Part shown: positions 6,992-24,000 of the stretch, one piece after another
Position numbering within the stretch: the stretch's first letter is position 1
Layout of the letters: each line of letters starts with the position of its first letter
Assembly (NCBI GenBank): GCA_949841225.1
Contig: CATKYY010000002.1
Coordinates: 25,357-49,356, forward strand
Origin: an uncultured Acetivibrio sp.
Lineage (GTDB): Bacteria > Bacillota > Clostridia > Lachnospirales > Lachnospiraceae
Direction: 5' to 3'
Length of the DNA: 24,000 nt
Program-made: the position numbers and the translations under genes
Notes under the pieces: model-generated
The model's input: the letters and a program-made list of their open reading frames with translations, nothing else
Told to the model about the DNA's origin: nothing
Databases searched by the model: none

Positions 6992-6997
6992 AGTTTA

Positions 6998-7675: not shown

Positions 7676-7715
7676 TCCCCTTTTCCTTCTATATAGCTTT
7701 CCTGTTTTCCACCTT

Positions 7716-8540: not shown

Positions 8541-8552
8541 ATCTATCCCTCC

Positions 8553-9455
8553 TTAATTATAGTGAACCCATTTTTTCTGCGCAATCATCTGGAATACTGT
8601 AATAATCATAATAATCGCTAACAGAAGAACTACGATTGTGGAACCATATCCTTTATTATTCTCTACAAAAGAATTCTGATAGAACAGGTATACCAGAGAC
8701 TGGGTTTTGTAAAGCGCCGGATTGTTCCGGTCCATTACCATAAAAATCAAGTCGAATACCTGAAGGCCGCCAATAACCCTTGTAATTGTAACAAAGAAAA
8801 TCGTTGGTGACAAGAGGGGTATTGTAATATGGAAAAATTGCTTGATTCCAGTAGCTCCGTCAATACTTGCCGCTTCATAATAATCTCCCGGAATCTCCTG
8901 AAGGCCTGAAATAAACAATACCATATTGTAACCAATAATAGACCAGATTCCAATCACTGCAATAGAAAATACAGCGATTTTCGGGTCGGAAACCCACTTA
9001 ATACTTGTTCCAAAAATATGATTCAAAAGACCGAACTCTGCGTTAAATAACCATCTCCATACCATAGCAATCGCCGCTGGAGCTGCAACCATTGGCAGGA
9101 AAAAGATTGTACGGTAAGCAGAACGTCCAAACATCTTGCGGTTTAAAAGAACTGCAAGAACCAGGGAAATCGCAATAGAGAATGGAACCTCTACGATCGC
9201 ATACTTAAAAGTATTGATAACCGCCTGCCAGATTTCCGCATCTTTGAACATAGTTATGTAATTCTGAAAACCAATAAAAACATTGCCTCGACCAAAATCT
9301 CCGGTTTTAAAGAAACTTTCATATATTGTTTTAAAAATTGGATAAATATTCAGAATAATCAAGCCAATCATCGTTGGAAGGATAAACGCCCATCCCCAGA
9401 TAAACTCATTACGTTCCTGGCTTGTTCCTTTTTTTGGTTTTGCCAAAGTTCTCAC
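8553..9455 (-). CDS. Carbohydrate ABC transporter permease (CUT1 family, MsmF/MalF-like)
   Basis: 300 aa with six TM segments and the EAA loop YYEAASIDGATGIKQFFHITIPLL. The start is uncertain. The track start at 9455 is GTG directly abutting AAAGGGAG, and TTG at 9446 has better SD spacing. Confidence 0.88.
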   Translation of the reverse strand: MRTLAKPKKGTSQERNEFIWGWAFILPTMIGLIILNIYPIFKTIYESFFKTGDFGRGNVFIGFQNYITMFKDAEIWQAVINTFKYAIVEVPFSIAISLVLAVLLNRKMFGRSAYRTIFFLPMVAAPAAIAMVWRWLFNAEFGLLNHIFGTSIKWVSDPKIAVFSIAVIGIWSIIGYNMVLFISGLQEIPGDYYEAASIDGATGIKQFFHITIPLLSPTIFFVTITRVIGGLQVFDLIFMVMDRNNPALYKTQSLVYLFYQNSFVENNKGYGSTIVVLLLAIIMIITVFQMIAQKKWVHYN

Positions 9456-9477
9456 TCCCTTTCATTAACCGACCGAT

Positions 9478-10767
9478 TTAGTTTGCCTCCTGTGCAATGG
9501 TATCATTCATCTGCTTTGTAATATTTGCACATGCATCCGCCATACTCTCTTCGTTATTCCATGGTTTCTTAAGCTCTTCTACCATTGGATTCCACCAGGA
9601 TAAGGTAGCGTTGGTATGTGGTCTGAACACGATATTATCCATAGTATCCAGATATGGCTGAAGGTTAAATACATCGGTATTCTTAATCCATGCATCAGAT
9701 ACGCCGTCATAAGCCGCCATTGTTACGCCAAGCTCTGCCTGTTTTGTCTGCATTTCTTTCGTTCCGAACCACTCAATTAACTGGAACGCTTCCTCTGGCA
9801 TAGAGGTAGTAGCAGAAGCCGCCCATCCAAGCCCGTTATATAAAGATACGCTCTGACCTGTTGTTGCATCCTTTGGAAGTCTTGCAACATCGCAGTTCTC
9901 TACCAGATAATCATTTGCCTTAAAGCCTGCTACCATCCAGGAGCCCTGAGAAATCATAGCAACCCTTCCAGACTGGAATAATACGTCGGTACCTGTCTCA
10001 GACATGGTATTTGCATCCGGCATTACATTTTTAATACACTTATCAAGAAATTCCATTGCTTTAATTGTGTTAGGGTCGTCGAATCCAGATGTGTTATCAT
10101 CCTTTAAAATAGTTCCGCCCATAGAATATACAATGTTCATCCATGTATCCTGCTCGTTTGACGGGTTACATGCGAAACCGTACTGGCTTCCGTCTTCCTT
10201 TGTCAGCTTCTGTGCAATCTCATAAAACTCATCCCATGTCCAGCTTCCATCCGGATAAGGAATACCAGCCTCGTCAAACATCGTCTTGTTATACCACATA
10301 GCGATGGTATCCACATCCTTTGGCACAGCGTAAACCTTTCCGTCCCACTCGTACATTTCCTTAATATCCGCCGGGAATTTGTCCATTTCAAGCTTCTCGC
10401 TTGCGCTAATCTTATCTGTTAAGTCTAACAAAATACCATTAGACATATATCTAACAGCTTCGTTAGAATGCATCCAGAATACATCCGGCATGTCTCCGCC
10501 GGAAGCGCCCGCCTCTAAAAGAGTCCAGTACTGATCCCATGTAATAACCTGAAGCTCAGTCTTGATACCCGTTTCAGCTGTAAAATCGTTCATGATTTCC
10601 TGAAGGCCCGCCTGCTGTGAATTATCCCAGATAGCAACTGTCAGTTTACCGCTTCCGCCTGAACCTGAATTTGAGTCGGAGCCGCTCTTGCTGCCGCACG
10701 CTGTGAGCATTGTCGCCATCATTACAAGAACAAGCCCCAATGAGATAAATTTTTTCATATTCTTCAT
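9478..10767 (-). CDS. ABC transporter extracellular sugar-binding lipoprotein (CUT1, MsmE-like)
   Basis: 429 aa. A signal peptide with lipobox MLTAC-GS is followed by a Ser/Gly linker. The solute-binding protein family 1 architecture is present. A strong SD (AAAGGAGGAAAC) precedes the ATG. Confidence 0.9.
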   Translation of the reverse strand: MKNMKKFISLGLVLVMMATMLTACGSKSGSDSNSGSGGSGKLTVAIWDNSQQAGLQEIMNDFTAETGIKTELQVITWDQYWTLLEAGASGGDMPDVFWMHSNEAVRYMSNGILLDLTDKISASEKLEMDKFPADIKEMYEWDGKVYAVPKDVDTIAMWYNKTMFDEAGIPYPDGSWTWDEFYEIAQKLTKEDGSQYGFACNPSNEQDTWMNIVYSMGGTILKDDNTSGFDDPNTIKAMEFLDKCIKNVMPDANTMSETGTDVLFQSGRVAMISQGSWMVAGFKANDYLVENCDVARLPKDATTGQSVSLYNGLGWAASATTSMPEEAFQLIEWFGTKEMQTKQAELGVTMAAYDGVSDAWIKNTDVFNLQPYLDTMDNIVFRPHTNATLSWWNPMVEELKKPWNNEESMADACANITKQMNDTIAQEAN

Positions 10768-10894
10768 AGTTTCCTCCTTTTCGTCATAACGACATGTTTT
10801 TTCTGTGATTATTTTATCGTTTTATACAAATTTCATAAATGGAATAAAAAACTAACTTTATGGTTTTTTGAATATAGAAAAATGATTTTTTTTA

Positions 10895-10923
10895 TGGCAA
10901 AATGTCCTGCCTTGGGTTATAAT
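10895..10923 (+). promoter_or_regulatory. Candidate sigma-A promoter for the AraC-family regulator (TGGCAA-17 nt-TATAAT)
   Basis: TGGCAA at 10895-10900 and TATAAT at 10918-10923, ~35 nt upstream of ATG 10958, which has the SD AGGAGAA. Identified by eye only. Confidence 0.4.
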
Positions 10924-10957
10924 CAAAATATACTATAAAAAGAAGAAGGAGAATCGT

Positions 10958-11887
10958 ATGAACAATATCAAGTACACTGACAGCGCACAGTTTAAATGCT
11001 TGGAACATTTGCGGCAGACTTCTCTTGACTTATACCTGATACACTGTGGCAAAGAACAATGCCCCCCGTCGCATATATGCCCCGGGCGGCGGGACGAATA
11101 TATCATCCACTTTGTACTATCGGGAAAAGGAACCTATCTGGCAAACGGGAGTATATGGGAGGTTAAACCAGGCCAGATGTTCCTTATATATCCCAACGAA
11201 CCAGTAACCTATGCTTCAGATTCTGAGGACCCCTGGAGCTATGCATGGATTGGATTTAACGGCATTCAGGCAGACCGAATCATTAAAAACTGCGGGTTCT
11301 CAAAAAAGCGCTTAGTACAGCAATACAGAAATGCTGATACCATTATACATAATGTTGATAAAATCCTGGAAGCACGACAGCTTTCTTATACAAATGATCT
11401 AAAACGAAAATCTTATTTGTTTATGCTACTTTCTGAACTGGTAGACAGCTACCTGGCCCTTGAACCAAAAAAAGCTATTGGCAAATATGATTACCGCAGC
11501 AATGTATATGTAGAGCATGCCATCGAATATATTAGATTTTCATATCAGGAAGGCATTAATGTATCTGACATTTCTGATTACATCGGTATCAGCAGAACCT
11601 ATTTAAACCATACCTTTCAAAAAGAACTTGGCATCTCTGTTCAAAAATTTTTAATAGATTTTCGCCTTCACAAAGCTGCAAATATGCTGACCAGTTCAGA
11701 TAAAACAGTAAATGAAGTCGCAAAATCTGTCGGATATGAAGACCCTCTTGCTTTTTCAAAAGCATTCAAGAAAAAATTCGAAATAAGCCCAAAACACTAC
11801 CGGGCCCATCAAGATAAAATGGAGAAATTCTCCGAAAAACAAATCGATCCAGTTCCACCTAGTATTCATATTGAAGCCATAAAATAA
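10958..11887 (+). CDS. AraC-family transcriptional regulator (cupin sugar-sensing domain plus two HTH motifs), MsmR/RafR-like
   Basis: The N-terminal cupin-like block is YIIHFVLSGKGTY...GQMFLIYPNEP. The C-terminal AraC HTH pair is ISDYIGISRTYLNHTFQKELG and VNEVAKSVGYEDPLAFSKAFKKKF. It is divergent from the sugar ABC operon. Confidence 0.88.
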   Translation: MNNIKYTDSAQFKCLEHLRQTSLDLYLIHCGKEQCPPSHICPGRRDEYIIHFVLSGKGTYLANGSIWEVKPGQMFLIYPNEPVTYASDSEDPWSYAWIGFNGIQADRIIKNCGFSKKRLVQQYRNADTIIHNVDKILEARQLSYTNDLKRKSYLFMLLSELVDSYLALEPKKAIGKYDYRSNVYVEHAIEYIRFSYQEGINVSDISDYIGISRTYLNHTFQKELGISVQKFLIDFRLHKAANMLTSSDKTVNEVAKSVGYEDPLAFSKAFKKKFEISPKHYRAHQDKMEKFSEKQIDPVPPSIHIEAIK

Positions 11888-11927
11888 GAACTCAGGGAGC
11901 TGCAGCTTCATGCCACAACTCCCTGAG
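11881..11927 (-). terminator. Rho-independent terminator closing the long minus-strand operon; also sits after the convergent AraC gene
   Basis: CTCAGGGAG (11891-11899) pairs with CTCCCTGAG (11919-11927), a 9-bp GC-rich stem. On the minus-strand RNA the stem is followed by UUCUUAUUUU (complement of 11881-11890). On the plus strand no U-tract follows. Confidence 0.6.
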
Positions 11928-11941
11928 CCCGATAACCTTAG

Positions 11942-12820
11942 CTATTCTATTGGTTTAAGATAAAAGCCTCCATAAAAATCTTCCGACTTAAAGGTATTGA
12001 TAATCGCATGGGGATCAACGTCCCTCATAAGCTTTGCAATATCCTGAATTTCATAACTGGACACTACCGTATGCAAAAGGCTTACGCTCTTTCCGCTGTA
12101 CCCTCCAATTCCATCCACTCTGGAAATACCATGCCGGTATTCTGCCACATACGCCTTGATAATATCGTCCGCTTTGCTTGTCGTCACCTGCATTGTCATA
12201 CGCTCATACCTGTGATAGAAGGAATCTATGGTTTTTGTAGAAATAAACTGGAATAAAATAGAATATCCCGCATACTCCCAGCCAAACATAAATCCGAAAA
12301 TAGTAATCAACGTCGCATTAAATACAAATACATAACTCCAAATGGATTTTCCCAGCTTATTGGAAATAAACAAAGCGACAAAGTCTACGCCTCCTGTGGA
12401 TGCATTTCCCTTCAGGGCGATTACCGTCATGATTCCGTAAGAAAAGCCTCCAAAAATAACATTCAGCAAAACATCGTCAAATAAAGGCTCAAAGCTTAAT
12501 ACCTTTAAAAAGAAGCTGGCAAAAAATACCTGGAGCAGAGAGAAAAATGTAAATCTTTTACTAATGCTCTTACTGCATAATATAGCTACTGGAATATTCA
12601 AAACCAACATTCCCAGAGAGGTAGAAAAAGAAAAACCAAAAAAGGTGGAAGTAATCTTTTCTATCAAAATAGCTACCCCTGTGAACCCGCTAGAAAGCAA
12701 ATTAATCGGGTTCATAAAAATTTTCATAATGGCCGCCTGTAAAAAGCCCGCCAATAAAACGCTCAGGAACGTATATAAATACCTTAATTTTTCATTATTT
12801 CTTATTATATGAATGTTCAT
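11942..12820 (-). CDS. YitT-family membrane protein with a C-terminal DUF2179-like domain
   Basis: 292 aa. There are ~5-6 TM segments including STGGVDFVALFISNK. The soluble C-terminal domain is ISRVDGIGGYSGKSVSLLHTVVSSYEIQDIAKLMRDVDPHAIINTF. The start ATG overlaps the CutC stop (ATGA at 12817-12820). Confidence 0.7.
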   Translation of the reverse strand: MNIHIIRNNEKLRYLYTFLSVLLAGFLQAAIMKIFMNPINLLSSGFTGVAILIEKITSTFFGFSFSTSLGMLVLNIPVAILCSKSISKRFTFFSLLQVFFASFFLKVLSFEPLFDDVLLNVIFGGFSYGIMTVIALKGNASTGGVDFVALFISNKLGKSIWSYVFVFNATLITIFGFMFGWEYAGYSILFQFISTKTIDSFYHRYERMTMQVTTSKADDIIKAYVAEYRHGISRVDGIGGYSGKSVSLLHTVVSSYEIQDIAKLMRDVDPHAIINTFKSEDFYGGFYLKPIE

Positions 12821-13557
12821 ATCCTTGCAACCAGCTTCTTAACTAAATTTTCATCGACCACATCGTAATCATTTTCATGAGGCTCCGCCGCATAAGCATA
12901 GGATACCTCCGGGCCTGTCGTGGTAGGATCGCACAGCCAGCCCTTACAGGAGCTGTGAACCTGTGAGATTCCCGTCTTTTCCATCATTTCCTTTGCATTA
13001 TCTGCATTCATGCCGCTGCCTGCCAACAGCTCAATGCGGTCCCCGTATTTCTTCTGTAAATCGGCAATCAGCTCCATTCCGTCCATGGCCTTGGCCTTCT
13101 GACCGCTGGTCAGCACGCGGGTAACTCCCATTTCTATTAGCTTTTCCATTGTCTGATATGGGTCCTGCACACAATCAAAAGCACGATGGAAAACAGCCTC
13201 GCCTTTATACTCTTTAATAATATCAATAATTTCCTGGGTTTGGGACTCATCCACATTACCCTCTTTGTCAAGACATCCAAAAGCAAGACCGTCCGCCCCA
13301 TTTTCCATTAGCAGCCTGGCATCCGCTTTCATAACCTCAAATTCAGCGGCGCTATAGCAGAATCCAGCTCCTCTTGGCCTTACCATGGCAATGACCCTCA
13401 GCTCTGTATTTTTCTTTGTTAAAAGCAAAGTTCCCAGAGATGGAGTCAGGCCTCCCAGATGTAACGCGCTGTTTAATTCAATACGGCCTGCTCCTCCATG
13501 GTACGCCGCCAGTGCATCCTCATAGCTTCCGCAGCATATTTCTATTACTTTTTCCAT
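12817..13557 (-). CDS. cutC: CutC-family TIM-barrel protein (annotated copper homeostasis protein; true function unclear)
   Basis: [42 protein letters not shown] matches the remembered E. coli CutC N-terminus ([38 protein letters not shown]). I chose the start at ATG 13557 over 13569 because it puts the gene in the same register relative to the conserved leader element as copies B-D. Confidence 0.85.
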   Translation of the reverse strand: [246 protein letters not shown]

Positions 13558-13599
13558 ATTAATCCCCATTTCCGCACTGCCTTTTATGCATAGCAGTCT
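13558..13599 (-). repeat. Conserved pre-start leader element, copy A (upstream of cutC)
   Basis: Sense strand: AGACTGCTATGCATAAAAGGCAGTGCGGAAATGGGGATTAAT|ATG. ACTGC can pair with GCAGT to form a short hairpin ending just 5' of the GGAAATGGGG SD region. Confidence 0.55.
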
Positions 13600-13611: not shown

Positions 13612-14703
13612 TTATCGAATCATTAAAGTAAAGCTGTTGCTTGGCTTAATACAATCTAAAATCAACTGCTCGCCTGTATTGATATGCCCTACATAGTTAT
13701 ATTCATCGCTTGCTTTAATCTCATCTAAAACAACCATCAGCTCGCCTGCATAATGCTTCAAATTATCATTTACAATAATTACGTCTCCCTTTGTGAAAAC
13801 ATCCTTGACATTTTCACGAGGAGCGATGGTCTCTCCCTTATATTTTATCCTTGGGAAGCTGGACCTTACTACCAACTCATTACAGTCGTCCCTGGAAGCA
13901 TGCATATCGCAGATAATAATTTCCTTTTCAATATCAGAAACTCCCTCTGCCAAATCAACCTTCATGGAGATTTTATTCAGGTTTACCTCCGCCATAGCCT
14001 TTAACTCTTCTTCGCTTGCAAAAGCGTTTCCAACCATAAAGTCGTTGCAGAAGCCCAAAGCGTTCAAATGCCTTACCTGCACATCAATTGGAAGATCTCT
14101 GTGAATTTCCAGCGTTGGCAATCCGTCATAGACCTCCCACGGACCATGGGTATGTTCTTCCTGGCTTGTTACAAAAGCCGCGTTATTGAGGCCTAAAGGC
14201 TGGTATTTGCTGTTTAATTCTTTAAAACGAGCAAGACCCATGCCTGTATTCCTCTGTGGATAGAAATTGCTGCAAATGCACATATTCGTCCGATTGGCGC
14301 CCTTTTCTAACATCATAGCCAGCGCCATATTACCGGATGCATTGTACTCAATCAAAATATTATGCGGATTCTTGGTAATCTCAATATCCTCTAATTCTCC
14401 AAAGTGGCCGTCCAAACGAATCACGTCTACGCCCATCTGAGCGAAAACAGACAAATCCCTTGGAGTTGCCCCAAGCCTTTCAAAAACCTCCGGGTTCGTA
14501 TCTACAGATACCATCAAGCCGCTCTCATGAGCAACGTTGCAAAACTCTGTAAACTCCTCTACAATCTTTTCCTTACTTTCCTTCACGGATAATAAACAGG
14601 TAAATACTCTTTTGAAACCATACTTTCCAGCCAACCTCATATAGTTATAGCATTCTTCCTTTGAAGCATGCTCTGGATAAACAGAAATTCCAAGTCTTTT
14701 CAA
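13612..14703 (-). CDS. DUF871/MupG-family protein (putative 6-phospho-beta-glycosidase; family prototype is 6-phospho-N-acetylmuramidase)
   Basis: 363 aa. The N-terminus MKRLGISVYPEH...YGFKRVFTCLL...GLMVSVDTNPEVFERLG...GVDVIRLDGHFG follows the remembered S. aureus MupG pattern (LGFSVY...GF..IFTSL...VDIS...GLRMDYG). The start is TTG 14703, with GGAGG 7 nt upstream overlapping the stop of the preceding gene. Confidence 0.7.
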   Translation of the reverse strand: MKRLGISVYPEHASKEECYNYMRLAGKYGFKRVFTCLLSVKESKEKIVEEFTEFCNVAHESGLMVSVDTNPEVFERLGATPRDLSVFAQMGVDVIRLDGHFGELEDIEITKNPHNILIEYNASGNMALAMMLEKGANRTNMCICSNFYPQRNTGMGLARFKELNSKYQPLGLNNAAFVTSQEEHTHGPWEVYDGLPTLEIHRDLPIDVQVRHLNALGFCNDFMVGNAFASEEELKAMAEVNLNKISMKVDLAEGVSDIEKEIIICDMHASRDDCNELVVRSSFPRIKYKGETIAPRENVKDVFTKGDVIIVNDNLKHYAGELMVVLDEIKASDEYNYVGHINTGEQLILDCIKPSNSFTLMIR

Positions 14704-14714
14704 AATAATTCCTC

Positions 14715-15830
14715 CTATAAACCTTTTAGCATTTCATACAATGCATAGGCATAAATCTGTGCATTTTTTTCAATGTCGCAAATCCGCATCCACTCGTTCG
14801 GCAGATGCCCGATTCCTTTTTGTCCCTTAAAACTCGGTCCAAAAGGAACAATGTTTTTAACTACCTTAGCATAGGTGCCGCCGGTCGTTGTAACCGCGCT
14901 GCCGTCCTCGCCCATAATTTCTTCATAGGCCTTTTCCAGGGTCTTAATCAAATAAGTATCCTTCTCAAAAAATACCGGATTAATATTAGAATCCAAGGTA
15001 AGCGTCATATGCTCGCTGCAAAGCTTTCCAAGCTTTTCTTCCATGGTTTCCAGCTTATAAGAAGCCGGATAGCTGGAAACCAGCGTTAAACCGCAGGTCT
15101 CTTCATCCTGGAACAGCTCTACCTTCCTTACCTGGTTCTTTCCAAATTCCTCGTCTGAATAATCAACCCCAAGACTGACGGACAAATCGCTCTGGTTCAA
15201 AATATACTGGTTCATAAAGGAAACCAGTTCGTCCAGATTATCCTTTGGAAGGCTGTATTTATATACTGCCCGTCCTCTCTCGGCATAAATAACCGGATAT
15301 TTGCAGTCCGGCGTCCAGCCCATAAGCGGATATTTATGGTCCTTAAAGTACCATTTCATATCCTCCATCCCGGTTTCTTCATTTGTTCCAAAAATAATCT
15401 TAACCTTTAAAGGAAATTCATAGCCAAGATCTGCCAACGCCTTCATTGCATATAAGCAGCAAAACATTGGTCCTTTATTATCCAGTACTCCCCTTGCATA
15501 CAGAGTTCCATCGATCTCTGTACATACAAAAGGGTCCGTCTTCCAGGCGCCGTTAATATCTACAACATCTAAATGCCCAACACAGGCAATATAATCCTCC
15601 GTATCTGGTCCATAAGAAGCAATACCAATCTGATTTCCTACATTTTCTGTTTCAAATCCCAGCCTCTCTGCAATTTCCAGGGCTTTATTCAGGCAGTCGG
15701 TAACTCTTTTTCCGAAAGGATGCTCTGGCGTAGCCGTATCCTGACGAGAATCCATGTTACACACTGTTTTAATATCCTCTACTAAAGCCGGAAGCAATTC
15801 GCTGACATGATTAATAATCTTTTCTTTCAT
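14715..15830 (-). CDS. M20-family metallopeptidase (PepV/dipeptidase-like catalytic blocks)
   Basis: 371 aa with intact M20 ligand blocks: CVGHLDVVD, YARGVLDNKGP, FGTNEETG, WTPDCKYPVIYAERG, GIGHLPNE. No signal peptide. Confidence 0.8.
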   Translation of the reverse strand: MKEKIINHVSELLPALVEDIKTVCNMDSRQDTATPEHPFGKRVTDCLNKALEIAERLGFETENVGNQIGIASYGPDTEDYIACVGHLDVVDINGAWKTDPFVCTEIDGTLYARGVLDNKGPMFCCLYAMKALADLGYEFPLKVKIIFGTNEETGMEDMKWYFKDHKYPLMGWTPDCKYPVIYAERGRAVYKYSLPKDNLDELVSFMNQYILNQSDLSVSLGVDYSDEEFGKNQVRKVELFQDEETCGLTLVSSYPASYKLETMEEKLGKLCSEHMTLTLDSNINPVFFEKDTYLIKTLEKAYEEIMGEDGSAVTTTGGTYAKVVKNIVPFGPSFKGQKGIGHLPNEWMRICDIEKNAQIYAYALYEMLKGL

Positions 15831-15878: not shown

Positions 15879-16832
15879 TTATTCCTCAACTGGCGCCATA
15901 CGCACGCGCATATACTCTTCCAGCCATTCCTGGCTTGCTACCTCAAAGGTGCAATGGCCATCTTCCTGCCTAGTTACAAGATAGACGGTAGGCTCCAGCT
16001 CTTCTGTAGCGACACTAAAGGAAAAGCCTGCAATATTTGTAGCGCAGCCAAACTCTCCCTTATTATTCATTGCAACAACAGAAAGGTCTCCGGCTGCTCC
16101 TCTTTTTTCCTTCAGCTTCTTATCCAGGTCGTTTACTGCTTTTTCACAAGCCTCTTGCGGCGTCAGGCCTTCCTTCATTAAACGAACAATTTCATAAGAA
16201 ATACAGCCCTTCATTAAATCCTCTCCTAAACCGGTAGCTGTAGCGCCGCCGACTTCAGAATCTGCGTAAAATCCAGAACCAACAATTGGAGAATCTCCAA
16301 CACGGCCGCTTCTCTTCATAAATAAACCGCTTGTGCTGGTAGCCGCCGTCACTGTCCCGGAATTGTCCAGGCAAACCATACCTACCGTATCATGTCCGTC
16401 ATAAGGCTTTAATTCCTGGCTAAGTTCTTTTTTCTTTTTCCTGTAAAATGCTTTTGCCCGGTCAGTAAGCATTTCTTTTTCTTCAAATTTAAACTCATGG
16501 GCATATTTTTCTGCTCCAGCTCCTACCAGAACATTATTTACCTTTTCCTCGCTAAGCTTCTTTGCAATACTGATTGGATTTGCAAAATCCTTGATGGCTC
16601 CAATCGCGCCTACGCTCATTGTGTCCCCATCCATATAGCCTGCGTCCAGCTCAACCACCTGTTCTTCGTTTGGCAATCCGCCGTAGCCTACAGACTTATA
16701 ATATGGGAAATCCTCTACCGCGCGAATTGCGGCCTCAATCGCCTTACCTGATGTTTCTCCGTCCTTTAATAACCCTTCTGCAAGCTCAATTCCTTCTTTT
16801 GCCATTCTCCATGTGGCTATAATCCCATGCAT
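15879..16832 (-). CDS. Ntn-hydrolase of the asparaginase_2 family, glycosylasparaginase (aspartylglucosaminidase) type; cytoplasmic
   Basis: 317 aa. The autoprocessing and nucleophile block DGHDTVGMVCLD resembles human AGA RGHDTIGMVVI. GRVGDSPIVGSGFYAD resembles AGA GRVGDSPIPGAGAYAD. The N-terminus IIATWRMAKEG resembles AGA VVNTWPF, whereas isoaspartyl peptidases start with IHGGAG. SVGYGGLPNE...ELDAGYMDG is also present. The protein starts directly at the conserved core with no signal peptide. Confidence 0.75.
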   Translation of the reverse strand: MHGIIATWRMAKEGIELAEGLLKDGETSGKAIEAAIRAVEDFPYYKSVGYGGLPNEEQVVELDAGYMDGDTMSVGAIGAIKDFANPISIAKKLSEEKVNNVLVGAGAEKYAHEFKFEEKEMLTDRAKAFYRKKKKELSQELKPYDGHDTVGMVCLDNSGTVTAATSTSGLFMKRSGRVGDSPIVGSGFYADSEVGGATATGLGEDLMKGCISYEIVRLMKEGLTPQEACEKAVNDLDKKLKEKRGAAGDLSVVAMNNKGEFGCATNIAGFSFSVATEELEPTVYLVTRQEDGHCTFEVASQEWLEEYMRVRMAPVEE

Positions 16833-16843: not shown

Positions 16844-17908
16844 CTAATATTCTAATATTTCCCCATAAACCTTTTCATTCATATCCTTAGCAAGCTCACA
16901 AATCAGGCGGATACACGCCTCTACGTCATCTGCGTGAATAATGCTGTGATTTGTATGCATATACCTGATAGGAATTGACAAAGTCATATTCACAACTCCC
17001 TCAAATGCCTTATGGATATTTCCAGAATCCGTTCCGCCCATATTAAATATTGCATATTGATGCTCAATATCATTCTTTTTGCAAATCGACTCAACATACC
17101 TGACAAGTCCCCGCGGGGCAATAGAGTTAGAATCAATCATTGACAGCACTACGCCTTTGCCCAAAGAGCAAATATTATGGTTCATCGGCGTATCGCCAGC
17201 TAAAGTAGTATCAATAGCAAAGGCAATATCTGGATACACCGTCTCTACAGCCGTCCTGGCTCCGCGAAGCCCCGGCTCTTCCTGAACTGTATTCGCCAGG
17301 TACAGCGGCGTATGCTCTTCCTTTTCCAGTCTTTTAGCGGCCTCTATCATAATATAATTGCCAATACGGTCGTCAAAGGCCTTACAGGAGATATATTTCT
17401 GATTGTTCATAACCTCAAAATGGGCTAATGGGGCTACCATATCCCCAACCTGAATTCCCAGGTCCAGCGCCTCCTGCTTGCTTCCAACGCCCAAATCCAG
17501 ATACACGTCTTCAATAGAAACCGTTTTGTTCCTGGTTTCCGCAGGCAGCCCATGCGTTGCCATGCTGCCCATCAGAGCATGGTATTCCCTTTTATCTCTT
17601 GTTACAATAGTATACCACTGCCCTAAAACCATATGGCTCCACCAGCTACCGATTGTCTGTACCTTAATAAATCCATGGTCGTCAATGCTTTTTACCATAA
17701 ACCCAACTTCATCCATATGGGCTGCAACCATCATCTTAGGTCCGCTGTGATTGGTACATTTACTAGCGATTACACTGCCCAACCCATCTCTTTCACATGG
17801 AAGGTTAAGAGCCTTATATTCTTCCTCCAGAATATTTCCAATTTCCTGTTCAAAAGAGGAAATACCATAGGCAGAACATATTTTATCTAATTTTTCTAAA
17901 TTAATCAT
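16844..17908 (-). CDS. M42-family (TET/FrvX-like) aminopeptidase with an intact metal site
   Basis: All five M42 ligand blocks are present: AAHMDEVG, KAFDDRIGN, VQEEPGLRGA, AFAIDTT, RYMHTNHS. I set the start at ATG 17908 (MINLEKLDKICSAYGISSFE). It aligns with the N-terminus of the upstream paralogue, lies 1 nt after that gene's TGA, and has GGTGAT upstream. The track start at 17935 would overlap by 26 nt. Confidence 0.85.
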   Translation of the reverse strand: MINLEKLDKICSAYGISSFEQEIGNILEEEYKALNLPCERDGLGSVIASKCTNHSGPKMMVAAHMDEVGFMVKSIDDHGFIKVQTIGSWWSHMVLGQWYTIVTRDKREYHALMGSMATHGLPAETRNKTVSIEDVYLDLGVGSKQEALDLGIQVGDMVAPLAHFEVMNNQKYISCKAFDDRIGNYIMIEAAKRLEKEEHTPLYLANTVQEEPGLRGARTAVETVYPDIAFAIDTTLAGDTPMNHNICSLGKGVVLSMIDSNSIAPRGLVRYVESICKKNDIEHQYAIFNMGGTDSGNIHKAFEGVVNMTLSIPIRYMHTNHSIIHADDVEACIRLICELAKDMNEKVYGEILEY

Positions 17909-17909
17909 T

Positions 17910-18926
17910 TCAATCACCAAACCCAAATTCAGCAAGCTTTTTAGAATTTATTGTTTCTAAATAAGCGGCCAATGCATTAACTAAAGCATCCACGTCCTCT
18001 GCCCTGCAGATTTCATTTGCGCTTCCCATATTATCTACTGCAATGCCCACGCTGATTGCAGGGGTTCCCTTTAACGTCTTATGAATAAAAGAACCGTCGT
18101 TTCCAGTCAGACCAAAATAAGCCTTTGTTTCCACTTCTTTTGCAAAATCCTTTAAAAATACCTGGGACGGCAACATCTGGCGGTCATAATAACCAAGAAC
18201 AACGCCGTCTCCCGGATGCACCTTTTTCTGCGCTGTATCAAAGCCTGTCAGAGCAATAGCGGCATCCGGCTTAATTACATAGGTTGCCGTTTTCGTTCCT
18301 CTGTACCCAATAACAGACTGTCCAATACACCCGGCAGCAATATGGAAATCAAATTCTTTATCTTTTATCTTTTCCATAAGCTCCAGCGTAACCTCATTGA
18401 AAACACGAGGGAAAAGAGCCTTTGACATAATAATTCCGTTATTTTCATTGAAATTATTTCCATAAGCTACCAGGTCTCCCGGATGAAGCAGCTCCTTCAT
18501 CTCATCATACTTCAAACCGCACTCAATTACCAAGTCGTCTGCGCTCTTGATTTCACACTTATCTTCCAGCGCCTTTTTCCCCGTAGTAATTACGCCGTCT
18601 ACATAGGTATTCTCTCTTGTCAGTATCCGCACGCGCTGATGCAAAAGAGAGCTTGGCGAAACGCTTTCCAACTGAATGAATGCAAGAGTTCCATTGTCCT
18701 TTACTTCTGAAACCATAAGCCCTACTTCGTCCAATGCAGAAGCGATCATCAATGTCTGCGCCGTTTCATTCTTTGACCTTTTGAATGCAAAAACCGAGCC
18801 CAGCCGATCGCATTTTATTTCATCGCATAAAGGCTCATAATCTTTTTGAAGCGTTCTTCCAATCATATGCTCCGCGCTGCTGACCCCAAAACTATTACAT
18901 AATTTTTCTAATCTCTTGGTATCCAT
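17910..18926 (-). CDS. M42-family paralogue with all five metal-ligand positions substituted (probable pseudo-peptidase subunit)
   Basis: 338 aa, colinear with the downstream M42 (MDTKRLEKLCNSFGVSSAE vs MINLEKLDKICSAYGISSFE). The ligand blocks read ASALDEVG (H to A), KALFPRVFN (DD to FP), GQSVIGYRG (EE to SV), AIALTGF (D to T) and VDNMGSANE (H to G). The SD AAAGGAG precedes ATG 18926. Confidence 0.75.
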   Translation of the reverse strand: MDTKRLEKLCNSFGVSSAEHMIGRTLQKDYEPLCDEIKCDRLGSVFAFKRSKNETAQTLMIASALDEVGLMVSEVKDNGTLAFIQLESVSPSSLLHQRVRILTRENTYVDGVITTGKKALEDKCEIKSADDLVIECGLKYDEMKELLHPGDLVAYGNNFNENNGIIMSKALFPRVFNEVTLELMEKIKDKEFDFHIAAGCIGQSVIGYRGTKTATYVIKPDAAIALTGFDTAQKKVHPGDGVVLGYYDRQMLPSQVFLKDFAKEVETKAYFGLTGNDGSFIHKTLKGTPAISVGIAVDNMGSANEICRAEDVDALVNALAAYLETINSKKLAEFGFGD

Positions 18927-18941
18927 AATTCTCCTTTTTTT

Positions 18942-18970
18942 AAAAGGCCTTATTAAAAATAAGGCCTTTT
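18942..18970 (-). terminator. Intra-operon 11-bp perfect hairpin; weak terminator, attenuator or processing/stability element
   Basis: AAAAGGCCTTA (18942-18952) is the exact reverse complement of TAAGGCCTTTT (18960-18970), with a 7-nt loop. It lies between the GrdB-like gene stop (18975) and the SD of the first M42 gene. Only a 4-U tract is available on the sense RNA. Confidence 0.4.
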
Positions 18971-18974
18971 ACAT

Positions 18975-19499
18975 TTAATAACAAACTCGGTTTTTAATGC
19001 TCTCAAGATCGCTCGAATTTTCAACCATGCCTGTAATAAGGTCGCATAAATCTGAGAAACTGTCATTTAAGCCGGTTCCTCCCTTTTTCGGCATTTTAAC
19101 AATAGGAGTTTTGTCTTTATAATTTTCAATTGTGTCTGCATTTTCAACCGACATCATAGCGCAGGACTTAAGATCCGTGTTCTCTGAAATGGACGCGGAA
19201 ATCATAGCCGCCATTTTAGCATAATCAGGGAAGTTAAAGCATGGGCCGCATACAACAAAGTCAGGGTTTACCTTCTTTGCCATAGCTGTCATTTTCTTTA
19301 TAACCTCTTCCTGGTTGTTTAAGAAATATTCATTACCGCAATATAAAGTAGCAGCAACTGTAGCTCCGATTTTAGCAAAATGGGATTCCAGCATCAACGC
19401 TGAACCAATACCGCCCTTTACAGCAGTCAATCCAACATTTGGATTTGTTTTTCCTCCGGCTCCAGCTAAGCCTTGATCAAAAATCAATACTATTTTCAT
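18975..19499 (-). CDS. Stand-alone homologue of the N-terminal domain of glycine/sarcosine/betaine reductase component B (GrdB-like); function unknown
   Basis: 174 aa. MKIVLIFDQGLAGAGGKTNPN...GIGSALMLESHF...ATVAATLYCGNEYFLNNQEEVIKKM...NPDFVVCGPCFNFPDYAKMAAMISASI parallels my recollection of GrdB N-termini (VVHYINQFFAGIGGEEKAD...GPGMALQ...IVATVICGDSYFNEN...PDLFIAGPAFNAGRYG). There is no in-frame TGA. I set the start at ATG 19499, 2 nt after the EIIC TGA; the track uses TTG 19505. Confidence 0.45.
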   Translation of the reverse strand: MKIVLIFDQGLAGAGGKTNPNVGLTAVKGGIGSALMLESHFAKIGATVAATLYCGNEYFLNNQEEVIKKMTAMAKKVNPDFVVCGPCFNFPDYAKMAAMISASISENTDLKSCAMMSVENADTIENYKDKTPIVKMPKKGGTGLNDSFSDLCDLITGMVENSSDLESIKNRVCY

Positions 19500-19501: not shown

Positions 19502-20854
19502 TCAATCCAACCCCAAATCATCAAATGATAAATCGTCAATTTCGTCTGTCTGTCCTTCCAGCGCACTTTCCTCATCTAAATACTTCTTATCCAGCAGCTT
19601 GAAGAATGGGTAGTAAACTAAAATATCTACTACTAACTGAACAATCTGGACAAGAGAGCCCATTACGCTTCCTGTTACCAGGAAACCGGATGCGATGATA
19701 GGAGTCGTCCATGGAAGCTGAACGCCTAATGTGATTGGCATAATACCTACAACAGTAGCTAAATATGCAATAATTGTGTTAATAACTGGCACCAGGATAA
19801 ACGGAATTGCCATCAATGGGTTTAATACCATTGGCAGACCGAAAATAATCGGCTCATTAATTCCGAAGATACCTGCCGGCAATGACAGCTTTCCAAGAGT
19901 TTTCATACGGTTTGACTTTCCTAAGAACGCCATCATGATAACCAGGCCCAGAGTACTTCCGCCGCCGCCAAAGTTACAGAAGAAATCTGAGAAACCAGCT
20001 GTAAAGATGTTGGTCATTTCCAAACCAGCCTGAGCTGCTTCATAGTTTTCAACTGTCAGTACCTTATGTATAGGAGCGAAAATTGTATTGGTTACGGCTG
20101 GTCCGTTAATACCGAAAAACCAGAACAAGGTGGATAAGAACTGATAGATTACTTCAAATCCTGCCAACTTACCTAAACCAACCAATGGAGCCTGCAGTAC
20201 CTGATAAATAAAGTAATGTACATATTTGTAGCTTGTGTGGTCGAATATAATACCAATCGCAAAGAAGATAACCATTGCAATCGCAGATGGTATCAATGCT
20301 GCTAAAGATTCCATTACTGCAGGAGGCACGCCTTCTGGCAATTTAATAATCAATTTCTTCTTAATAGCCCAGGCATAAATCTCAACAGATATAATTGCAG
20401 TAATCATCGCAAGGAACATACCTGCAGTTCCTAAGAAAGTGAAAGTAAATCCACTAACAGAGCCTGCTTCTGCAGCGCCTTCTAATTCTACGATAGTTTT
20501 CTGTGGAGTAATAATCAAGAAACATACTAAAGCTACAACTCCGCCGCCGATTCTGTTTTCCAAGCCTTTTTCACGGGCATAACAATAACCAATACTCAAT
20601 ACGCCCAGCAGAGCAACGCAGTCAAAAGCAATCGCTGTTACCCTTCCCATGTAAGCGTCCCAGCCTTCTCCAAAAATAGAGGTCATGAAGTTTAAAAAGC
20701 CCTCTATTGGGAAGTTAGAAATTAACAGGAAAATAGAACCAACAATGGTAATTGGGACAGTAATCAAAAATCCGTCTCTAATCGCAGATAATACCTTATT
20801 CTTTGACAGAATATTTGCAACAGGCATTAAAAGCTTTTCAAGTTTCTGCATCAT
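19502..20854 (-). CDS. PTS EIIC, lactose/cellobiose/chitobiose (Lac) family
   Basis: 450 aa and polytopic. The Lac-family EIIC signature GINEPIIFGLPMVLNP resembles ChbC/CelB ITEPVIFGLPIVMNP. An acidic C-terminal tail (DEESALEGQTDEIDDLSFDDLGLD) is present. Confidence 0.9.
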   Translation of the reverse strand: MMQKLEKLLMPVANILSKNKVLSAIRDGFLITVPITIVGSIFLLISNFPIEGFLNFMTSIFGEGWDAYMGRVTAIAFDCVALLGVLSIGYCYAREKGLENRIGGGVVALVCFLIITPQKTIVELEGAAEAGSVSGFTFTFLGTAGMFLAMITAIISVEIYAWAIKKKLIIKLPEGVPPAVMESLAALIPSAIAMVIFFAIGIIFDHTSYKYVHYFIYQVLQAPLVGLGKLAGFEVIYQFLSTLFWFFGINGPAVTNTIFAPIHKVLTVENYEAAQAGLEMTNIFTAGFSDFFCNFGGGGSTLGLVIMMAFLGKSNRMKTLGKLSLPAGIFGINEPIIFGLPMVLNPLMAIPFILVPVINTIIAYLATVVGIMPITLGVQLPWTTPIIASGFLVTGSVMGSLVQIVQLVVDILVYYPFFKLLDKKYLDEESALEGQTDEIDDLSFDDLGLD

Positions 20855-20857
20855 AAA

Positions 20858-21181
20858 TTAATTCCCTCTACTTTCTTTGTAAATCTTCAGTGCCTTTTTC
20901 AGAACTCTCTCGCCGTCTACGTTACCATAGTCAACGCTATCAATAACGGTAACAACATGGTCCTTACTATATCTTTCAGCAACCTTCTCATAAAGATGCT
21001 TTACCTGCGGCCCTAACAGAATTACTTCTGGATTGAATTCATTTACAATATCACCCATGTTGGCCTCAGAAAATGCCTTTACCTCCAAATCCAGCTTATG
21101 CGCGTCAGCAACTTTCTGCATTTTGCTTGCTAACAAACTTGTAGACATTCCAGCGCTGCAAAATAAATAGAATCTTTTCAT
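20858..21181 (-). CDS. PTS EIIB, chitobiose/cellobiose type
   Basis: MKRFYLFCSAGMSTSLLASKM matches E. coli ChbB HIYLFCSAGMSTSLLVSKM, including the phospho-Cys. LLGPQV and VIDSVDYGNVDGERVLK also parallel ChbB. Confidence 0.92.
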   Translation of the reverse strand: MKRFYLFCSAGMSTSLLASKMQKVADAHKLDLEVKAFSEANMGDIVNEFNPEVILLGPQVKHLYEKVAERYSKDHVVTVIDSVDYGNVDGERVLKKALKIYKESRGN

Positions 21182-21200
21182 TGCTCTCTCCCTCCTTCCC

Positions 21201-21509
21201 TTAATTTTTATTTTTGTATAACTCGATCAACTCTGCAACTAACAGCTTTGCTGTTTCTGCAGCCATTAATTGATCTTCCGCGTGCATTAACAGCAGGCAC
21301 ATTTCTGTTTTCTCTCCGCCTGCCTCTTTAGAAATCAAATCCGCATGCTGCTTATGTCCGTTTGCATAGCATTCATCTCCATGCTTCATTGTTTCCGCAG
21401 CCTTCTCAAAATCTCCTTTCTTAGCGCATTCCAGGGCGTTGATATAATCGCTCTTCGCCTCCCCGACAGCGGAAATAATTTTAAAGCAAATTAATTCCAT
21501 TTCTTCCAT
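21201..21509 (-). CDS. PTS EIIA, lactose/cellobiose/chitobiose type
   Basis: 102 aa of helical-bundle type. ...AKKGDFEKAAETMK...LLLMHAEDQLMAAE...AELIELYK parallels E. coli ChbA (QAKQGDFAAAKAMM...LVLVHAQDHLMTS...TELIELHEK), including the phospho-His. Confidence 0.9.
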   Translation of the reverse strand: MEEMELICFKIISAVGEAKSDYINALECAKKGDFEKAAETMKHGDECYANGHKQHADLISKEAGGEKTEMCLLLMHAEDQLMAAETAKLLVAELIELYKNKN

Positions 21510-21523: not shown

Positions 21524-22084
21524 TTAAATTTTTTTATTTTCAATTACTTTACTGCGCGCCAAATAATCATGGACCGCCATATTGCTTTTAAATACCAGGA
21601 TCGCCGACACCGTCAACATTCCTGAGCTTATATAGTTTAATGCTTTTCCAGCCATGTCGAAGGTCAGCATAGAAACTATCTGCGTAAAATAATTACCGGT
21701 AAGCATAAAAGCTCCCTCTAAAAGCATAACTCCTGCAAGCTGTCGTATAGCAAGCTTTCCAGTGGAAAGCGGCTGGCCATTCTCATCAACAATCTTAATA
21801 CCCATAAGTTTTTTCCCTACTGTCTGGCCTTCCCATGCCCATAAAGGAATAATATAATAGTATACAGCGCCAAACAATAGTCCCAACAAGCCCGCCAACA
21901 ATCCATAAGGACTTTTAAATAAAGTAAGATCCGTATTGATTGCCTCTTCTCCTGTCAGCATATTCCATAAAAGACCCGCCGGTATTGTACTGAAAGCAGA
22001 CCCCAGATACCAGTCGATTAAAAATGCAAAGCCCCTTTTATTCCACGGCGCAAATGCTGCTTTCAATTTCGTTTGTTTTTTCAT
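21524..22084 (-). CDS. RDD-family membrane protein; first gene after the regulator
   Basis: 186 aa. WNKRGFAFLIDWYLGS and GQTVGKKLMGIKIVDENG are typical RDD-domain blocks, and there are 3-4 TM segments. Confidence 0.65.
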   Translation of the reverse strand: MKKQTKLKAAFAPWNKRGFAFLIDWYLGSAFSTIPAGLLWNMLTGEEAINTDLTLFKSPYGLLAGLLGLLFGAVYYYIIPLWAWEGQTVGKKLMGIKIVDENGQPLSTGKLAIRQLAGVMLLEGAFMLTGNYFTQIVSMLTFDMAGKALNYISSGMLTVSAILVFKSNMAVHDYLARSKVIENKKI

Positions 22085-22191: not shown

Positions 22192-24000
22192 TCAGCACTT
22201 AATAATTAAATCAATGAACTCTTTTGCGCTTTGCGCTTTCATAATATTTGATAAAAGCAGGGTATCATCGCAGATATTTCCAAACCATTCAAAAAAAATC
22301 TTTAATAAATCTCTTTCATCCTCCCGAATAGCCAGAAGTAATACCAACCTGACCTGATAACCCCCCCATTGCACAGGTTTCTTTAAAATAGCAATACCCA
22401 TAGTAGACTTAACCGCCGAATAATTTAACGCATGCGGAATAGCATAACCATAGCTAAAAGAGGTATACGCCATATTTTCCCTTTCAAAGGTAGACTCCTT
22501 AAAGGATTCCTCAACCCGGCCGCCTTCATACATCTTATCACATAAATATTCAATAACATTTTCATAGCTACTGCAATCCAGGTTATAAAAATAATAATCG
22601 TCTAAAATCAGGCCTCTGATGGATTTATCAAATTCCATCCTATAGTGCTTTTTATCAAGTTCTGTAATCGCCTGAAAAATCTTATATTCATCGCTGGTGT
22701 TTACAAACATACTTATGTGGACTGTCGGAATGTTCAATTTATGCGTAAGCGCTATCGTCGTAATAATCAAATCAGGATGAAGCCTTTCTATCACCGGCGC
22801 TTCATAATAGGACAAAACTGTATCAACAACTATTCTTTCACCAAAATGCTCTGCTATCTTATCTTTACAAATATCTGATAAGGTACTGCTGTTTGGCTGA
22901 ATCAAAACAGCATGGTAAAAAGATTTAATATTTAACCTGTCATAAGCCGCCCCAATATGGATAGCTAAAAAACCAATCTCATCTTCCGAAACCGGACTGT
23001 TCACATATTCCTCAATAATAGAGCCAACAAAAACTCCTACCTCAAATACCAGCGGATAATTCTTTTTAATTTCTGCCAAACAAACATTCGAAACGCCAAT
23101 TTTATAATTTATCCTCTCCAGGAGGTTCTGCAAATGCAGGACAATACCGTCTTTAAAAACAATATCGCCGGAAAAATCAATATCATATCTTTGCTTAACC
23201 ATATCTATAATTTTAAGCATTAACTCTTCCGCCTGCAGCGAATGTTCTTCTTTATCAAGAAAAGCGTTCCTTCGCCTGTCAACCAGCAAATTTGCAAATA
23301 AAATAATTTCATTCTCATTTAACTCAAAATGAAGAAAAGATGTTACCTTCTCAAAAAATTCTATTGCAATCTCATATTCCTGCGTTTCCTTAATTTCGCA
23401 GTAATTTTTTTTCGTCTCAATATAGTTGCAGTTCATCATTCTTTGGATAGCTACGCCTACATGTATAATCAGCATCGGAAAAGTTTCTTCACGAACTTTA
23501 TAATTATGCTTTTCAAAAATTTCTTCCAAAAAATTCTTTACTTTAACTAAATCAAAATTGGAAAATAACTGAGCAATCTTATTTACATTAATAAAATTAC
23601 CTCTCGTCTCACTGGCAAGCAAATCCTTATAAACAAACCGCTTGCTCTCCTCTCTACCCTTTAGATAAAGATAATTTCCATTTTTAACCAGCTCGACATC
23701 ATCGTACTTTTCCAACATTTCCATAAGCCTTTTGATGTCGTTTTTAATTGTGGATTCACTAACATAAATATCATACTGCAAATCAAAAATATTCAGCTTC
23801 GGTTTATAAAAAAGCAGCTTTTCAATAATATACTTACATCTCTCTTCTGAAGTATGGGGAATATTTCTCCTAACTTCTAAGTTACTTTTTTCAAAAACCT
23901 CTTGATTAATCCTGTAGCCATAACGAACGCTGGATTCGACAATTCCTTCATATAGCTTTCCCAACTGGTCTATATCGTTGCGAATTGTCCGGTCAGAAAC
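22192..24000 (-). CDS. PRD-domain transcriptional regulator of the LicR/MtlR/ManR class (HTH, HTH, PRD1, PRD2, EIIB-like, EIIA(Mtl/Fru)-like); 5' end off the window
   Basis: The track ORF starts at an internal TTG (23964). The frame stays open to base 24000 and reads VSDRTIRNDIDQLGKLYEG..., a typical HTH_11 helix, so the gene is 5'-truncated by the window. A second HTH is VSESTIKNDIKRLMEML. PRD histidines occur in MLIIHVGVAIQRM and FLAIHIGAAYDR. The C-terminal EIIA type-2 block is YGYAIPHALN...VRLVLLLAI. Confidence 0.8.
   Translation of the reverse strand, partial: VSDRTIRNDIDQLGKLYEGIVESSVRYGYRINQEVFEKSNLEVRRNIPHTSEERCKYIIEKLLFYKPKLNIFDLQYDIYVSESTIKNDIKRLMEMLEKYDDVELVKNGNYLYLKGREESKRFVYKDLLASETRGNFINVNKIAQLFSNFDLVKVKNFLEEIFEKHNYKVREETFPMLIIHVGVAIQRMMNCNYIETKKNYCEIKETQEYEIAIEFFEKVTSFLHFELNENEIILFANLLVDRRRNAFLDKEEHSLQAEELMLKIIDMVKQRYDIDFSGDIVFKDGIVLHLQNLLERINYKIGVSNVCLAEIKKNYPLVFEVGVFVGSIIEEYVNSPVSEDEIGFLAIHIGAAYDRLNIKSFYHAVLIQPNSSTLSDICKDKIAEHFGERIVVDTVLSYYEAPVIERLHPDLIITTIALTHKLNIPTVHISMFVNTSDEYKIFQAITELDKKHYRMEFDKSIRGLILDDYYFYNLDCSSYENVIEYLCDKMYEGGRVEESFKESTFERENMAYTSFSYGYAIPHALNYSAVKSTMGIAILKKPVQWGGYQVRLVLLLAIREDERDLLKIFFEWFGNICDDTLLLSNIMKAQSAKEFIDLIIKC

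Follow-up and report, generated by a model that had tools for sequence, protein, structure and literature searches.

A 24,000-nucleotide stretch of DNA from an uncultured Acetivibrio sp. (Lachnospiraceae; contig CATKYY010000002.1), referred to below as the window, encodes two adjacent paralogues of the M42 aminopeptidase family. The upstream one (P0001, the dead copy) is by its sequence a catalytically dead M42 homologue that has lost the metal site, whilst the downstream one (P0002, the live copy) is intact. The dead gene is full-length and under purifying selection with its fold intact, and the two genes are strictly co-inherited and, to judge from their junctions, translationally coupled. 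Because the metal site was lost whilst selection was maintained, and because the dead gene always lies just upstream of its intact sister, a non-catalytic partner role appears most likely, and the dead copy is probably a pseudo-subunit that co-assembles with the live M42 into a mixed oligomer. The features of the gene pair are as follows, with coordinates given as positions within the window and all genes of interest lying on the minus strand.

17910..18926, minus strand: dead M42 paralogue P0001, 338 aa (Pfam PF05343, 131 bits; alignments, AlphaFold2, Foldseek, dN/dS)
16844..17908, minus strand: live M42 aminopeptidase P0002, 354 aa (PF05343, 310 bits; site residues intact; dN/dS)
17906..17912, minus strand: coupled junction of dead TGA (17910-17912), 1 nt and live ATG (17906-17908) (sequence read)
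18931..18935, minus strand: AGGAG Shine-Dalgarno of the dead M42 gene (sequence read)

A sequence-only reading of this DNA had described the two genes as adjacent and colinear with stop and start 1 nt apart, and the junction is exactly so. The dead gene starts at an ATG at 18924-18926, giving a Shine-Dalgarno spacing of 4 nt (18927-18930). Both products belong to PF05343 (cut-off 23.2), with 131.1 bits for the dead copy over profile positions 1-290 of 292 and 310.1 bits for the live copy. Both fell under every cut-off of the NCBIfam M42 equivalogs (PRK09961, glu_aminopep, lys_aminopep_Arch and PRK09864), the best scores being 138 bits (dead) and 270 bits (live), each against a cut-off of 412. 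One further canonical M42 is encoded elsewhere in the genome from which the window derives.

To compare the two active sites, the dead copy was aligned with the live copy by BLASTP (27% identity, E 5e-33) and by HMMER with the solved M42 enzymes YsdC (1vhe) and PhTET2 (1y0r/1xfo), and the BLASTP and HMMER alignments were concordant column by column. The live copy retains H64, D66, D179, E210, E211, D233 and H318, all seven of which are invariant in 18 orthologues, whilst the dead copy carries at these columns A, D, F, S, V, a gap or L/T, and G, respectively. All five metal ligands (PhTET2 H68, D182, E213, D235 and H323) are replaced in the dead copy and the catalytic general-base Glu (PhTET2 E212) has become Ser204. 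The corresponding motifs in the dead and live copies are SALDE and HMDE, LFPR and FDDR, QSV and QEE, ALTG and AIDTT, and NMGS and YMHT. The sequence-only reading had held that every M42 ligand is replaced in the upstream protein and that the downstream protein is intact, and the alignments agree with it, with all quoted motifs present. Its five ligand blocks stand with the correction that the ligand in FDDR is the first Asp and that the Asp of the HxDE block, D66, survives in the dead copy; this second-shell residue of the HxD motif is invariant across the whole family. The check for ligands at shifted positions that accompanied that reading was run against the live copy, PhTET2 and YsdC, and none was found in any of these alignments.

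A word-indexed search returned approximately 115 full-length homologues of the dead copy at 38–74% identity. When these were aligned with P0001, 114 of the 116 sequences lacked the metal site, the other two being ordinary M42s, and the catalytic-Glu column was Ser in the same 114. The former ligand columns vary freely within the dead family (P/S/A, F/S/N/Y, V/T/I, T/C/S and G/S), and near-invariant motifs, QS(V/T)IG(F/Y)RGTKT and GNDGSFIHKT, occupy the former site. Most invariant residues of the dead family (D40, S44, D66, R209, G210, T213, D277, H282 and K283) are invariant in the live partner too. A new catalytic triad of D66, S204 and H282 was considered and dropped, D66 and H282 being equally invariant in the live partner. 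Proteins of the dead family are labelled 'M42 glutamyl aminopeptidase' or 'hypothetical' in databases, names which are misleading.

Selection was assessed from pairwise Nei-Gojobori (NG86) ratios of nonsynonymous to synonymous substitution rates (dN/dS), using pairs with dS of 0.05–1.5. The median dN/dS was 0.110 for the dead M42 (81 pairs) and 0.094 for the live M42 (71 pairs), with 0.057 for the GrdB-like gene (61 pairs) and 0.050 for IIC (151 pairs) of the same operon. No frameshifts or stops were present in orthologues of the dead gene, the frame being intact in 39 genome loci and approximately 115 homologues, and a near-identical strain in public run X4 differed in this gene by substitutions only, with zero indels. 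An AlphaFold2 model of the dead copy, built from a 20-sequence alignment, had a mean predicted local distance difference test score (pLDDT) of 88.8 and a predicted template modelling score (pTM) of 0.89. This model shows the two-domain M42 fold, comprising a catalytic domain and an inserted PDZ-like dimerization domain. Foldseek matched the model to M42 structures only (1vhe, 5ds0, 1y0r, 3kl9 and 9a5r; template modelling score 0.85–0.92, E down to 1e-31), of which 9a5r was the top match, and the ESM Atlas yielded only generic M42 clusters.

These data bear on two simple explanations of the dead copy. Loss of all catalytic residues is what a pseudogene or decaying duplicate would display, but such an origin is practically excluded by the intact frame in 39 loci and all those homologues, a dN/dS of 0.11, the confidently predicted fold, and the strong Shine-Dalgarno together with conserved coupling to the next gene. 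The sequence-only reading had likewise argued against simple decay, and the dN/dS and conservation check that it proposed across related genomes supports it (approximately 0.11 for the dead gene versus 0.09 for the live gene, no frameshifts in homologues, and the AGGAG Shine-Dalgarno present). It is also very improbable, if slightly less so, that the dead copy is still an active peptidase through shifted or alternative ligands. Retention of D66 and of the IHK loop could be taken to favour this, but all five ligand columns are occupied by other residues in three independent alignments, no compensating His, Asp or Glu lies nearby, and a metal site would not tolerate the free variation seen at the ligand columns.

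A scan of one genome per species gave 39 loci carrying the dead M42 gene, from Lachnospiraceae, Erysipelotrichaceae (Dielma, Allobaculum and Bulleidia/Solobacterium), Anaerococcus and Helcococcus, spanning three classes of Bacillota. The live M42 gene directly followed the dead gene in all 39. At the dead/live junction of 37 related loci the genes overlapped by 1–14 nt in 32 and were separated by 0–1 nt in five. The two paralogues are encoded together as adjacent genes with coupled translation signals in what is predicted from sequence to be a shared operon. In the window, the remaining features of this operon, which includes a phosphotransferase system (PTS), are as follows.

22192-23964, minus strand: PRD/Mga/EIIA2 regulator, operon head (Pfam)
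21524-22084, minus strand: RDD-family membrane protein, operon head (Pfam)
19502..21509, minus strand: PTS of the lactose/cellobiose family, IIA 21201-21509, IIB 20858-21181, IIC 19502-20854 (Pfam and NCBIfam)
18975..19499, minus strand: GrdB-like protein without selenocysteine, NF041545, 174 aa from the ATG at 19499 (NCBIfam, 232.6 bits versus cut-off 175)
15879..16832, minus strand: Asparaginase_2 Ntn-hydrolase, best match glycosylasparaginase (PF01112, 216 bits)
14715..15830, minus strand: short PepV/Sapep-like M20 dipeptidase, 371 aa (TIGR01887, 303 bits in two stretches)
13612-14703, minus strand: MupG-family 6-phospho-glycosidase (Pfam)
12817-13569, minus strand: CutC (Pfam)
11942-12820, minus strand: YitT-family membrane protein (Pfam)
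11888..11930, minus strand: strong terminator-like hairpin of 19 pairs plus T run, closing the operon (sequence read)

A fixed core of IIB, IIC, GrdB-like, dead M42, live M42 and M20 genes was observed wherever a locus extended far enough, with the Asparaginase_2 gene sometimes inserted between live M42 and M20. The GrdB-like gene lay immediately upstream of the dead M42 in all 38 loci reaching that far, and IIB-IIC directly preceded the GrdB-like gene in every locus that reached it. Genes for Asparaginase_2, CutC, MupG, RDD, IIA, YitT and the PRD regulator were found close by in variable positions; CutC, MupG and YitT occurred in most loci, although MupG was absent from about a third, and the RDD protein and PRD regulator were kept upstream in most. 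The GrdB-like protein is among the better conserved products of the cassette (73% mean column identity), with invariant motifs including FDxGLxGxGG, a Cys-Gly-Pro-Cys-Phe segment and MPKKGxxGL; a sequence search for solved relatives of this protein returned none. A perfect 12-bp inverted repeat with a 5-nt loop (window 18942-18970, minus strand; arms 18959-18970 and 18942-18953) sits between the GrdB-like stop (18975-18977) and the Shine-Dalgarno of the dead M42 gene. It is no classic terminator, since an A run rather than a T run lies 3' of the repeat on the coding strand, and it may act within the operon as a hairpin for RNA processing or stability.

The origin of the dead family was examined by a profile search of 1.8 billion cluster representatives, with the resulting 50%-identity clusters typed by their ligands. 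Thirteen core clusters lacked every ligand, and more distant clusters carried partial sets, for example HDEKEDH, HDEKEDY, HDNEQDN, FDRNQDD, NDSSIDG and SDDAKQK. Seven distant clusters were inspected in their contigs (P0128, P0137, P0145, P0156, P0132, P0133 and P0136), and in each the M42 gene directly followed a GrdB-like gene. A second M42 gene came next in all five distant contigs that were long enough, with the same PTS context; in L047 and L052 the gene after the distant M42 was cut by the contig end and had no Pfam call. The GrdB-like gene was present in the distant cassette loci of the series L045-L052, L050 being an unrelated stand-alone context. Cluster P0135 is fully liganded, groups with P0132 and P0133 and stands alone in an unrelated context, and the xD(G/A)(S/A)(F/W)IHK loop is already present both in P0135 and in the partly liganded relatives.

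In a quick maximum-likelihood tree, midpoint-rooted and with long branches that leave its deep order insecure, the core dead family formed one group (Shimodaira-Hasegawa-like approximate likelihood ratio test (SH-aLRT) support 99), with the partial-ligand forms branching between it and canonical M42s. The live partners formed a separate clade (99) nested among canonical M42s, and the topologies of the dead and live sub-clades matched. A recent tandem duplication was rejected, as dead and live copies do not group as sister clades in this tree. The distribution of ligand sets suggests a paralogue that occupies one slot of the cassette and has a single old origin, in which the catalytic Glu would have been lost early and the metal site progressively, with the cassette inherited or transferred as a unit. 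Cassettes of some Erysipelotrichaceae (L017-L021) clustered with those of Lachnospiraceae (L001-L016) for dead and live genes alike, at 57–60% (dead) and 69–70% (live) identity to the window, which suggests that the cassette has moved as a whole from one class of Bacillota to another.

Other pairings of M42 units were also encountered. A second, apparently independent tandem M42 pair lies in a non-PTS context (L053 4976-7023 and L054 1143-3190), adjoining genes for a MurD-like ligase and a Met gamma-lyase-like protein; in this pair the degenerate copy (P0194, pattern TDDSKDH) comes second, 2 nt downstream of a copy that is apparently canonical. Single chains of approximately 700 aa with two M42 units were also found (P0134, P0148, P0155, P0161, P0185, P0228, P0196 and P0250), most with both sites complete and some with the last Asp as Glu, the second unit being degenerate in P0196 (GDSKRN-) and P0250 (HDSELDL). 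These chains could be natural fusions supporting a pairing of M42 units, or gene-calling artefacts.

The composition of the operon points to a substrate class. The best solved relatives of the Asparaginase_2 protein were glycosylasparaginases (E 2.6e-52) rather than isoaspartyl peptidases (1e-34), and the M20 gene followed either live M42 or Asparaginase_2 in all loci reaching that far. Glycosylasparaginase needs free alpha-amino and free alpha-carboxyl groups on its substrate, and in Lacticaseibacillus casei the gene of a validated glycosylasparaginase, AsnA2, shows genetic linkage to pepV, which encodes an M20 peptidase (PMC6960285). With its chitobiose-type PTS, M42 aminopeptidase pair, dipeptidase and glycosylasparaginase, joined in many loci by a MupG-family 6-phospho-glycosidase, the operon probably catabolizes PTS-imported glycopeptides carrying N-acetylglucosamine-Asn (GlcNAc-Asn) or chitobiosyl-Asn, with which the suggestion of a glycan substrate in the sequence-only reading is compatible. 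A muropeptide substrate, as MupG, M20 and an isoaspartyl peptidase might indicate, was judged less likely than GlcNAc-Asn, as the Asparaginase_2 protein is nearer to glycosylasparaginases and about a third of the loci lack MupG. The M20 protein is shorter (371 aa) than its family models (approximately 450–466), matches them in two stretches and is conserved in this short form across loci; it seems to be an M20 dipeptidase without part of the lid domain. In locus L045 (11434-14054), genes for malic enzyme and a Lyase_1/FumaraseC protein (aspartase or fumarase) lie between M20 and CutC, an arrangement that fits use of released aspartate.

The 1:1 complex of dead and live copies was predicted with custom alignments in three concordant runs. 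The interface score (ipSAE, interaction prediction score from aligned errors) was 0.59 compared with 0.01 for the best control, a value that the tool grades as 'weak support'. The predicted interface is asymmetric and head-to-tail and not a two-fold dimer contact, recalling the meeting of PhTET2 and PhTET3 homodimers at mixed apices. On the live side it would involve residues 246-306, including the GGTDSGNIHK loop, and 352-354, and on the dead side residues 16-20, 40-42, 71-74, 84-86, 102-104, 148-152 and 203-217, among them the QSVIGYRGTKT segment that stands in place of the QEE motif. Positions of the dead protein in this interface were more conserved than the rest (0.82 versus 0.62; 0/10,000 permutations, p<1e-4), the homologous opposite face scored 0.73 against 0.63 overall, and M71, L86 and R104 are among the interface residues conserved solely in the dead family. 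This conservation is taken as supportive and not as decisive, since residues that are buried or near the site are conserved throughout the M42s. A three-chain prediction adding the GrdB-like protein scored 0.00, the same as controls, which offers no support for such a complex and is not evidence against it.

The sequence of events that best accommodates these observations would be as follows. The dead subunit would be produced in step with the live M42 from the gene directly downstream, and the two would assemble into a mixed oligomer in which only live subunits cut. Dead subunits would keep the fold and both subunit-contact faces, and would probably shape or restrict the catalytic chamber. 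The oligomer would trim N-terminal residues from PTS-imported, sugar-phosphorylated GlcNAc-Asn glycopeptides and the short M20 dipeptidase would take off the C-terminal side. The outcome would be (6-P-)GlcNAc-Asn with free amino and carboxyl groups, as glycosylasparaginase requires. Within this scheme, the existence of a complex, the number and arrangement of its subunits, the nature of the substrate and the contribution of the dead subunit are inferred. The suggestion in the sequence-only reading that a conserved dead subunit serves as a scaffold, gate or substrate-recognition subunit in a hetero-dodecamer is partly supported, namely in respect of a conserved, selected dead copy that is co-inherited with a live M42. 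A more specific form, which we regard as unlikely, casts the dead subunit as a specificity module: its former site and invariant loops, lying beside the live centre in mixed apices, would hold 6-phospho-GlcNAc-Asn so that trimming stops at the glycosylated Asn. The slot lineage would also record the stepwise birth of a pseudoenzyme, from a fully liganded stand-alone relative through cassette members lacking only the catalytic Glu (E to K, HDEKEDH) to ligand-free members.

Several points weigh against a mixed oligomer. The complex score of 0.59 lies in the weak band, and any two M42 paralogues may score through family memory. Loops 201-210 and 271-290 of the dead copy, its most family-specific parts, are the lowest-confidence parts of the model. 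The dead and live clades are not sister groups, and the pair is therefore no product of a recent tandem duplication, after which interfaces would have been kept by default. The substrate is deduced from gene content. No usable RNA evidence of expression was found in runs labelled as RNA, which hold only 5–6% of words and gave one 248-nt contig within the live gene and nothing usable over the dead gene. A further objection concerns metal. In characterized M42s, metal binding drives the step from dimer to dodecamer, as stated in the part of PMC7948507 that cites Dutoit et al. 2019; apo and metal-ligand-mutant forms of TmPep1050 are deposited as dimers (PDB titles 5ne6-5ne9), and PhTET2/3 was re-oligomerized with Co2+ (PMC4220976). 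As metal drives M42 assembly, a metal-free subunit may fail to make standard apex contacts, and a standard TET particle is not to be assumed; a subunit without a site must either take on a conformation like that of the metal-bound state or alter the oligomer.

The second of these outcomes is the basis of another explanation, that the metal-less dead subunit is an assembly limiter or chaperone which caps or redirects oligomerization of the live M42, giving a smaller open hetero-oligomer or a transient complex that admits bulky glycopeptides barred by the pores of a closed TET dodecamer. The metal dependence of the dimer-to-dodecamer transition, the predicted head-to-tail contact, which is not of the two-fold dimer type, and a presumed substrate with a bulky phospho-sugar all favour it, but both contact faces of the dead subunit are conserved above average (0.82 and 0.73 versus 0.63), as would be expected of a ring or closed contact more than of a cap. 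It is a sub-variant of co-assembly rather than an exclusive alternative, and we consider it rather improbable. Marginally less doubtful is a new stand-alone function, in which the metal-free former cleft would bind or process the imported phospho-sugar part without assembling with the live M42; the protein could be a binding protein or carrier for 6-P-GlcNAc-Asn, or a metal-free hydrolase. The dead family does have near-invariant motifs of its own at the former site, with Ser in 114 of 116 sequences at the catalytic-Glu column, is under selection as strong as that on true operon enzymes, and is an old lineage that is not sister to its live partner. However, most of its invariant residues are shared with the live partner and are therefore general M42 structural residues, the IHK-type loop is found already in P0135 and in partly liganded relatives and is no new invention, and few invariant residues specific to the dead family have catalytic chemistry. 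Such a function would also leave unexplained the strict adjacency and overlap with a live M42 gene in every genome.

Outside the operon, positions 2770-11887 of the window hold an ordinary-looking alpha-galactoside utilization locus, with a GH36 melibiase (4727-6925), an ABC sugar transporter (7716-10767), DUF624 and PfkB kinase genes, a divergent AraC regulator (10958-11887) and an Amidase_3 gene (2770-3645).

Hetero-oligomeric M42 complexes are known, as the sequence-only reading had pointed out for archaea. In Pyrococcus horikoshii, PhTET2 and PhTET3 homodimers assemble into heterododecamers whose apices are mixed (PMC4220976, Appolaire et al. 2014), and in Bacillus subtilis a heteromeric YtoP-YsdC M42 complex is indicated by in-cell crosslinking MS and an AlphaFold model (PMC10090944; PDB 9a5r). 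The archaeal case resembles the present pair in that two M42 paralogues of one organism co-assemble, which is here a prediction, but both archaeal subunits are active with complementary specificities whilst one subunit here is without a metal site; no coupled tandem arrangement is reported for the archaeal genes, and archaeal assembly is metal-induced. The B. subtilis complex is likewise a hetero-complex of two M42 paralogues, in this case from Bacillota, and is the top structural match of the dead model, but no dead subunit has been reported in it and YsdC (1vhe) aligns with canonical motifs. The B. subtilis ytoP and ysdC genes are not known to be adjacent in a PTS operon. Mixed M42 complexes are known (P. 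horikoshii) or indicated (B. subtilis), whilst a dead-subunit role has, as far as the searchable literature goes, not been described for the M42 family.

Other protease chambers do contain inactive paralogues, for example ClpR in the ClpP/R rings of plastids and the inactive beta subunits in the 20S proteasome of eukaryotes. By analogy these are dead paralogues selected as structural members of a hetero-oligomeric chamber, although folds, catalytic classes and lineages are unrelated and the analogy is one of principle only. E. coli also has PTS-linked M42 genes, frvX, sgcX and ypdE, which are single and apparently ligand-complete. They share with the present pair the encoding of an M42 inside a sugar-PTS operon, and PRK09961 and PRK09864 were the best-scoring models here, but the E. 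coli genes stand singly and both proteins of the pair score far under the equivalog cut-offs. The alf-2 cluster of L. casei, for fucosyl-GlcNAc-Asn (PMC6960285), is comparable in linking the glycosylasparaginase AsnA2 to an M20 PepV-like peptidase, but uptake there is by an MFS permease and not a PTS, PepV is dispensable, and an M42 pair, GrdB-like gene, CutC and MupG are all absent. The searchable literature, which is thin on subscription journals, yielded no account of a dead M42 subunit, of an obligate coupled dead/live M42 pair or of this PTS cassette.

Work on M42/TET enzymes has treated them as half-megadalton homo-oligomeric machines, apart from one archaeal particle in which two active subunits mix. 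If the interpretation given here is correct, an obligate, selected pseudo-subunit would be a new way to build or tune TET particles, parallel to ClpR and the inactive proteasome subunits, and would bear on how a subunit lacking metal could assemble, given that assembly of the known enzymes is driven by metal. The long-standing and so far unexplained association of M42 genes with sugar-PTS operons would gain a concrete hypothesis, namely the trimming of imported glycopeptides for glycosylasparaginase, which would be relevant to the scavenging of host and dietary N-glycoproteins by gut Bacillota.

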